Shown here piece by piece: positions 15,419 through 15,492 of a DNA stretch of 64,000 bases (position 1 is its first letter; each line of letters starts with the position of its first letter). The translations under genes were made by a program, and so were the position numbers. The notes below the pieces were generated by a model. The model saw only the letters and a program-made list of their open reading frames with translations, made no database searches and was not told the origin of the DNA. Source of the DNA: Escherichia coli 042 (GTDB lineage: Bacteria > Pseudomonadota > Gammaproteobacteria > Enterobacterales > Enterobacteriaceae); assembly GCF_000027125.1 (NCBI RefSeq), contig NC_017626.1. One strand, given 5' to 3'.

Positions 15419-15421
15419 AAC

Positions 15422-15455
15422 AAAAAAAACCGGAGCGATAAACTCCGGCTTTTTG
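15422..15455. terminator. Bidirectional rho-independent terminator shared by convergent sbcB and plaP
   Basis: A-run 15422-15429, stem ccggag (15430-15435) / ctccgg (15443-15448), T-run 15449-15454. Confidence 0.7.
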
Positions 15456-15492
15456 AGATTTACCGGATGATTATGTCATCCGGCTTGTAAGA

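Follow-up and report, generated by a model that had tools for sequence, protein, structure and literature searches.

The interval between sbcB and plaP raises a simple question: why does it hold two genes in Escherichia coli K-12 and none in the strain described here? In MG1655 the order is sbcB (+), tsuB/yeeD (-), tsuA/yeeE (-) and plaP (-), with the sbcB and plaP stops 1,520 bp apart. TsuA/YeeE is a thiosulfate transporter and TsuB/YeeD is a TusA-like sulfurtransferase. In the window, by which we mean the whole 64-kb stretch of DNA that was analysed, sbcB (+) and plaP (-) converge on a spacer of 74 bp (15419-15492).

Both ends of this spacer were located precisely. The sbcB gene ends with TGA at 15416-15418 and plaP with TAA on the minus strand at 15493-15495; these coordinates confirm the first-pass annotation, which had described two convergent stops separated by 74 bp. 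K-12 SbcB was aligned to the window by tblastn over residues 1-475 (13991-15415) at 99% identity, and K-12 PlaP was aligned at 100% identity (16851-15496). K-12 TsuA and TsuB gave no tblastn match within the 64-kb window. Between sbcB and plaP the window has neither coding sequence nor remnants of tsuA or tsuB, which bears out the first-pass description of a spacer free of gene remnants. That annotation had also given the K-12 order as sbcB-yeeD-yeeE-plaP, and tsuB and tsuA are indeed annotated there in MG1655. In genome CFSAN061770, which is identical to the window over the locus stretch, RefSeq names sbcB and plaP and no gene between them. The features of the interval and of the DNA around it are listed in Table 1.

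Table 1. Window coordinates of the sbcB-plaP interval, its predicted structures and the segments of the surrounding mosaic.
Feature	Position	Strand	Basis
sbcB, exodeoxyribonuclease I, 475 aa full length, stop TGA	13991-15418	+	tblastn, RefSeq annotation
plaP, putrescine/proton symporter, 452 aa	15493-16851	-	tblastn, RefSeq annotation
tsuBA-null ("empty") allele of the sbcB-plaP interval	15419-15492		junction common to other empty-site genomes
Predicted bidirectional intrinsic terminator	15422-15454	both	terminator scan, RNA folds, conservation
Second hairpin CCGGATGAT-TAT-GTCATCCGG, perfect 9-bp stem, 3-nt loop (read on + strand)	15463-15483		RNA fold
Tract with the empty allele, 3,055 bp, 0 mismatches to CFSAN061770 lineage	14210-17264		mismatch positions, density map
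Segment near-identical to FDAARGOS_1058 (O78, tsuBA-positive), mostly about 0-1 mismatch/kb, 7-10/kb at 7-8 and 9-10 kb	3000-10500		
Segment with no close match among complete genomes, best 98.8%	10500-14209		
Segment near-identical to FDAARGOS_1058, 0-1 mismatch/kb	17265-20000		
Segment close to neither of the two genomes compared	20000-25000		
Segment near-identical to CFSAN061770 lineage, at most 2 mismatches/kb	about 25000-40900		

The consensus terminator scan called the same hairpin in the spacer on the plus strand (15430-15448) and on the minus strand (15454-15424); over the 500-bp region, 3 sites were called versus 0.4 expected. The layout is an A8 run, the stem CCGGAG/CTCCGG (15430-15448) enclosing a 7-nt loop, and CTTTTT. 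Read on the plaP strand, it becomes a 13-bp stem followed by T8. The A-run begins 3 nt past the sbcB stop in the window. When the spacer RNA was folded and compared with shuffled controls, the free energy was -26.8 kcal/mol (z = -3.6) for the plus strand and -32.2 kcal/mol (z = -6.0) for the minus strand. Like other bidirectional Rho-independent terminators, this one has a GC-rich stem between an A-run and a T-run, which gives a hairpin and a U-tract on each strand, and it is placed between two convergent stops and conserved across genera. It differs from the typical ones in the sbcB direction, which has a short U-tract (CUUUUU) and a stem of just 6 bp. On account of this short tract and stem, the shared hairpin may terminate sbcB less efficiently than plaP. 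Among the loci listed in the survey of Enterobacteriaceae described below, the motif ATAAAAAAACCGGAG..CTCCGGTTTT beside plaP was kept in nearly all empty loci and in 22 of 22 occupied loci. By sequence homology the terminator in the window is plaP's own, the counterpart of the plaP-proximal terminator of K-12, and it is predicted that in the null state it can end both convergent transcripts.

The first-pass annotation had credited the spacer with a single clean terminator. One bidirectional terminator is present, as stated; the second hairpin at 15463-15483 had been overlooked. This hairpin is 21 bp long, adjoins plaP and is not followed by a T-run. It occurs in the empty alleles of ST131 and E. 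whittamii as well. There was no further copy of it in the 64-kb window, and no match in the K-12 interval (locus L001) when up to 3 mismatches were allowed. A relic of the K-12 interval and a dispersed repeat were both rejected as its source, because it is absent from the K-12 locus and unique in the window. As far as these alignments go, the second hairpin is specific to the Escherichia empty allele. Stabilisation of the plaP mRNA 3' end is one possibility for its putative role.

The K-12 locus has the same flanking genes as the window and a homologous CCGGAG/CTCCGG terminator beside plaP. The two loci differ in length (1,520 bp versus 74 bp), and the excess in K-12 consists of the sbcB/tsuB terminator, tsuB, tsuA and the tsuA promoter region, which would together form a self-contained module absent from the null haplotype. 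They also differ in the sbcB stop, which is TAA in K-12 and TGA in the window, and in the extra 21-bp hairpin beside plaP, which the null allele has and K-12 has not. In K-12 and in all occupied loci of other genera, the sbcB stop is followed by a GC-rich hairpin common to sbcB and tsuB, then by tsuB, tsuA, the conserved tsuA upstream region (CCAATAACCAAA..TCTA..GGTTAT), the motif ATAAAAAAACCGGAG-loop-CTCCGGTTT and the plaP stop. In empty loci this last motif, ATAAAAAAACCGGAG-loop-CTCCGGTTT, was retained and all DNA from the sbcB stop up to it was gone. No repeats or clear microhomology marking a deletion junction were found. It is conceivable, as a speculation from the junction sequence, that the TGA stop was built from the T of TAA and a GAA upstream of the terminator. 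Across the listed genera, whether sbcB ends in TGA or in TAA showed no association with the state of the locus outside Escherichia.

The frequency of the empty interval was determined in 5,426 complete RefSeq E. coli genomes, of which 5,424 contain the locus. tsuB-tsuA DNA was present in 4,209 of the 5,426 (77.6%), so K-12 and most strains do not share the 74-bp interval; had they shared it, the claim of the first-pass annotation would by its own statement have been refuted. An uninterrupted empty junction, aligned in one piece across the spacer at 94-100% identity, was found in 782 of the 5,426 genomes. In a further 433, ST131 among them, the site was empty of tsuBA and IS200C lay between the sbcB stop and the terminator. 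The three counts (4,209 + 782 + 433) sum to 5,424, that is to every genome with the locus, which indicates that the three states are essentially disjoint; within the sensitivity of megablast, genomes with an empty site seem to have no tsuBA at another place. The tsuBA-null state thus accounts for 1,215 of 5,424 genomes (22%), a figure inflated by the heavy clinical sampling of ST131. In ST131 the IS200C insertion occupies L003:2520-3304, equivalent to window positions 15419-15429. Where present in E. coli, tsuBA was 98.2-100% identical among the near-full-length rows sampled, and its identity was at least 95% in 4,201 of the 4,209 genomes. In E. coli HH45 (L089:2981-4053), the annotation gives both tsuB and tsuA as truncated, on either side of about 700 bp of odd GC-rich sequence; this may be a genuine rearrangement or an assembly artefact.

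A spacer of 74 bp could also be produced by an assembly or collapse artefact that lost 1.45 kb. Hundreds of independent complete assemblies have the same 74-bp interval, and an interval without yeeD and yeeE has been known since 2011 from directly sequenced regions (PMC3158064), so that an artefact is scarcely credible. In that study (Iguchi et al. 2011, PLoS One; PMC3158064), three E. coli O157 strains were without yeeD and yeeE, one O157 strain had an IS200-like element between sbcB and yeeF, and both findings were related to recombination in the neighbourhood of the O-antigen cluster. The two genes missing from the sbcB-yeeF (plaP) interval of those O157:non-H7 strains are the same as in the window. 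The earlier account is one sentence on three strains, whereas the present analysis covers 5,426 genomes and the Enterobacteriaceae; and the strains concerned were O157, whereas the window allele belongs to a lineage with an O-antigen of the O17/O44/O73/O77/O106 family. The yeeD/yeeE-less state is already known in print (PMC3158064) and is an ordinary presence/absence polymorphism. What is added here is the frequency of the null state (22%, with the sampling bias named above), the identification of the terminator as plaP's own conserved bidirectional one, the proposed recurrence of the loss, the age of the null allele and the tract by which it would have recombined.

The junction is clean, and this by itself would favour a recent deletion private to the strain or its clone. 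Such a deletion is highly improbable, since the identical junction was found in 782 + 433 complete genomes from several lineages and in E. whittamii, and since the spacer copies of the window, ST131 and E. whittamii differ by about 5%, as copies of an old allele would. E. whittamii is the only non-coli Escherichia with usable downstream sequence among the loci listed. It is empty, with a spacer of 73 bp, both hairpins and the junction as in the window, and about 5 differing positions. The same junction and the same second hairpin are found in E. whittamii and in several E. coli lineages, so that the Escherichia null allele would have a single origin, and the 5% difference among its spacer copies would place that origin long ago. 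The first-pass annotation had offered a choice between an ancestral-empty state and a precise deletion. A deletion, if that is what occurred, is not specific to this strain, and the state is not rare (1,215 of 5,424 genomes, plus E. whittamii); the choice now concerns an old null haplotype.

The SbcB locus was scanned across the Enterobacteriaceae with one genome per species. This gave 80 listed loci, 76 of them including plaP; E. albertii, E. fergusonii, E. marmotae, E. ruysiae and Salmonella are left out of the listed loci. About 46 of the 76 listed loci with plaP were empty, and nearly all of these keep the plaP-side terminator. tsuB-tsuA occupied 22 of the 76, at the identical site and in the identical orientation, in some Citrobacter, Kluyvera, some Kosakonia, Pseudocitrobacter, Superficieibacter, Lelliottia and Siccibacter. 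Other content was found in 8 of the 76, including IS200C in the ST131 reference locus and 652 bp in locus L075. Raoultella terrigena (L033) has an insert of 2.8-3.0 kb with a gene for a 700-aa EF-G paralog (L033:7475-9574); inserts of this size are present in L027, L031, L053, L059, L067 and L068, the content having been read in L033 alone. In Pseudocitrobacter vendiensis (L072, 7592-12789) about 5.7 kb of lipid-synthesis genes, which resemble those for CDP-alcohol phosphatidyltransferase and CdsA, lie between sbcB and tsuB, and plaP falls beyond the end of the L072 sequence. Trabulsiella (L026) has a broken tsuA.

A separate observation from the same loci concerns plaP. The identity of PlaP to that of E. 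coli is bimodal across genera (96-99% versus 85-90%; L006-L083) and unrelated to SbcB identity; in Enterobacter cloacae, PlaP is 97% and SbcB 85% identical. The plaP nucleotide distances likewise fall into two groups, 0.11-0.125 and 0.17-0.19. The pattern suggests either two plaP allele classes of long standing or exchange between genera.

The distribution can be read in two directions. The single-terminator spacer may have been original in Escherichia, tsuBA having entered, as a self-contained module, directly behind the sbcB stop in an ancestor common to most E. coli lineages, or having been imported by recombination from another genus. In its favour, most of the listed Enterobacteriaceae species have an empty locus with the same terminator, E. 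whittamii is empty, and the cassette brings its own terminator and promoter and exactly fills the space from the sbcB stop to the conserved terminator. Import of the region from another genus does happen. In the soil isolate E. coli MEI4BO-21 (L088, NZ_CM149565.1 1836041-1845048), sbcB-tsuB-tsuA-plaP is 13-26% diverged from K-12, while the spacer between tsuA and plaP hardly differs from the one in Kluyvera georgiana (L037), suggesting that the chromosomal region was replaced by one from another genus. Against an originally empty site, tsuA divergence follows that of sbcB across genera and is not lower. Nucleotide distances from K-12 to other genera were 0.20-0.27 for tsuA and 0.19-0.25 for sbcB, and the pairwise distance matrices of the two genes were correlated (r = 0.83, 21 occupied loci). 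The diversity of tsuBA within E. coli is like that of core genes, its site and orientation are the same in all occupied genera, and neither mobility genes nor flanking repeats were found around tsuBA in the occupied loci listed. These properties favour an old resident cassette. The broken or partial tsuA of Trabulsiella (L026) and HH45 also speaks against an originally empty site, as decay under way. We consider an originally empty site unlikely.

The tsuBA cassette would most likely be ancestral at this site in the Enterobacteriaceae and would have been lost repeatedly. The comparisons favour loss over an ancestral-empty state, with the polarity inferred. This preference was kept at a measured level because the closest Escherichia outgroups are missing, most of the sampled species are empty and the junction bears no deletion scar. 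Two E. coli genomes were considered as substitutes for an Escherichia outgroup. MEI4BO-21 was rejected because its tsuBA segment is Kluyvera-like, and HH45 was set aside with its truncated tsuB and tsuA around a GC-rich stretch, which may be assembly noise. Our preferred explanation as a whole, which we hold with good confidence, is that the spacer is a widespread tsuBA-null haplotype, that an old cassette has been lost repeatedly and that the null allele has been spread by recombination.

The last part of this explanation concerns the DNA around the spacer. Homologous recombination in the his-O-antigen hot region would be the means by which the null allele now segregates in E. coli. The lineage of CFSAN061770, with which the tract in Table 1 shares every position, comprises 68 empty-site genomes at at least 99% identity. 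The flanks of the tract are about 2-2.7% diverged from this lineage, and 44 mismatches to CFSAN061770 were counted outside 14210-17264 in the wider comparison. The two breakpoints of the tract fall within sbcB and yeeY. Over 24 kb, the best match among complete genomes was 98.5%, and the best matches carry tsuBA. The window as a whole is a mosaic with breakpoints at about 10500, 14210, 17265, 20000, 25000 and 40900. Its last segment, which is again close to CFSAN061770, spans hisF/hisI, wzzB, ugd, gnd, the O-antigen cluster and galF. The O-antigen cluster itself (about 31300-39500, gnd to galF) has at most 1 mismatch/kb to CFSAN061770, in which wzx and wzy are annotated as the O17/O44/O73/O77/O106 family. 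Judged from these mismatch densities, the null tsuBA allele and the O-antigen cluster are from the same lineage. Because the sharply bounded tract with the null allele abuts, at its yeeY end, DNA near-identical to a tsuBA-positive lineage, the arrangement has the signature of homologous recombination having moved the null allele within the his-O-antigen region, in the manner known from O-antigen switches (PMC3158064).

Two further presence/absence differences were seen in the same comparison. At 19000-19529 the window has two small overlapping minus-strand ORFs at the yoeB-yefM position of FDAARGOS_1058. The CFSAN061770 lineage is without the ORFs at this position (alignment gap 18994-19654), which makes a presence/absence polymorphism beside hisL; one has been mentioned there before (PMC3158064). 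Upstream of tmaR, at 3000-9500, the window carries the CP4-44-like island genes yeeS, yeeT, cbeA, cbtA and yeeW, as does FDAARGOS_1058, and CFSAN061770 has a pdu propanediol-utilisation operon in their place (L086:21333-33000).

The consequence of the null state can be predicted from published experiments. YeeE requires YeeD for thiosulfate uptake, and an MG1655 cysPUWA yeeE double mutant does not grow on thiosulfate, growth being restored by a yeeE-yeeD plasmid (PMC11073785). It follows from this uptake and mutant phenotype that a tsuBA-null strain should rely on CysP/CysUWA. The strain studied here is likely, as the first-pass annotation had proposed, to be without TsuA/TsuB thiosulfate import and would assimilate thiosulfate via the CysP-CysUWA ABC transporter alone. 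Sulfur models built on K-12 count on two ways of taking up thiosulfate, CysPUWA and TsuA/TsuB; among the E. coli sequenced so far, roughly a fifth, pandemic ST131 included, would have only one. The null locus would also offer a clean knockout made by nature, with which to learn under what conditions TsuA/TsuB matters.

The presence or absence of tsuBA may, beyond this, be a long-lived polymorphism under selection, the null allele being exchanged together with O-antigen switches and enriched in extraintestinal lineages such as ST131. Both alleles would then predate the diversification of E. coli, the null allele being common to E. whittamii and the occupied one having co-diverged with Citrobacter, and the same loss would recur in many genera of the Enterobacteriaceae. 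We regard selection of this kind as rather doubtful. If it were true, the cost or benefit of the sulfur route would depend on the niche, for example on thiosulfate-rich gut habitats. For basic biology the locus carries little weight, being a common accessory-gene polymorphism of genes with known functions in a known recombination hot region. Recurrent family-wide loss and the age of both alleles would be mildly interesting for population genetics.

One further observation concerns the occupied haplotype. The motif CCAATAACCAAA...TCTA...GGTTAT upstream of tsuA (L001:3862-3990) is strongly conserved among genera whose sequences otherwise differ by 20-25%. Its probable function is to bind a regulator, putatively that of the sulfur regulon.
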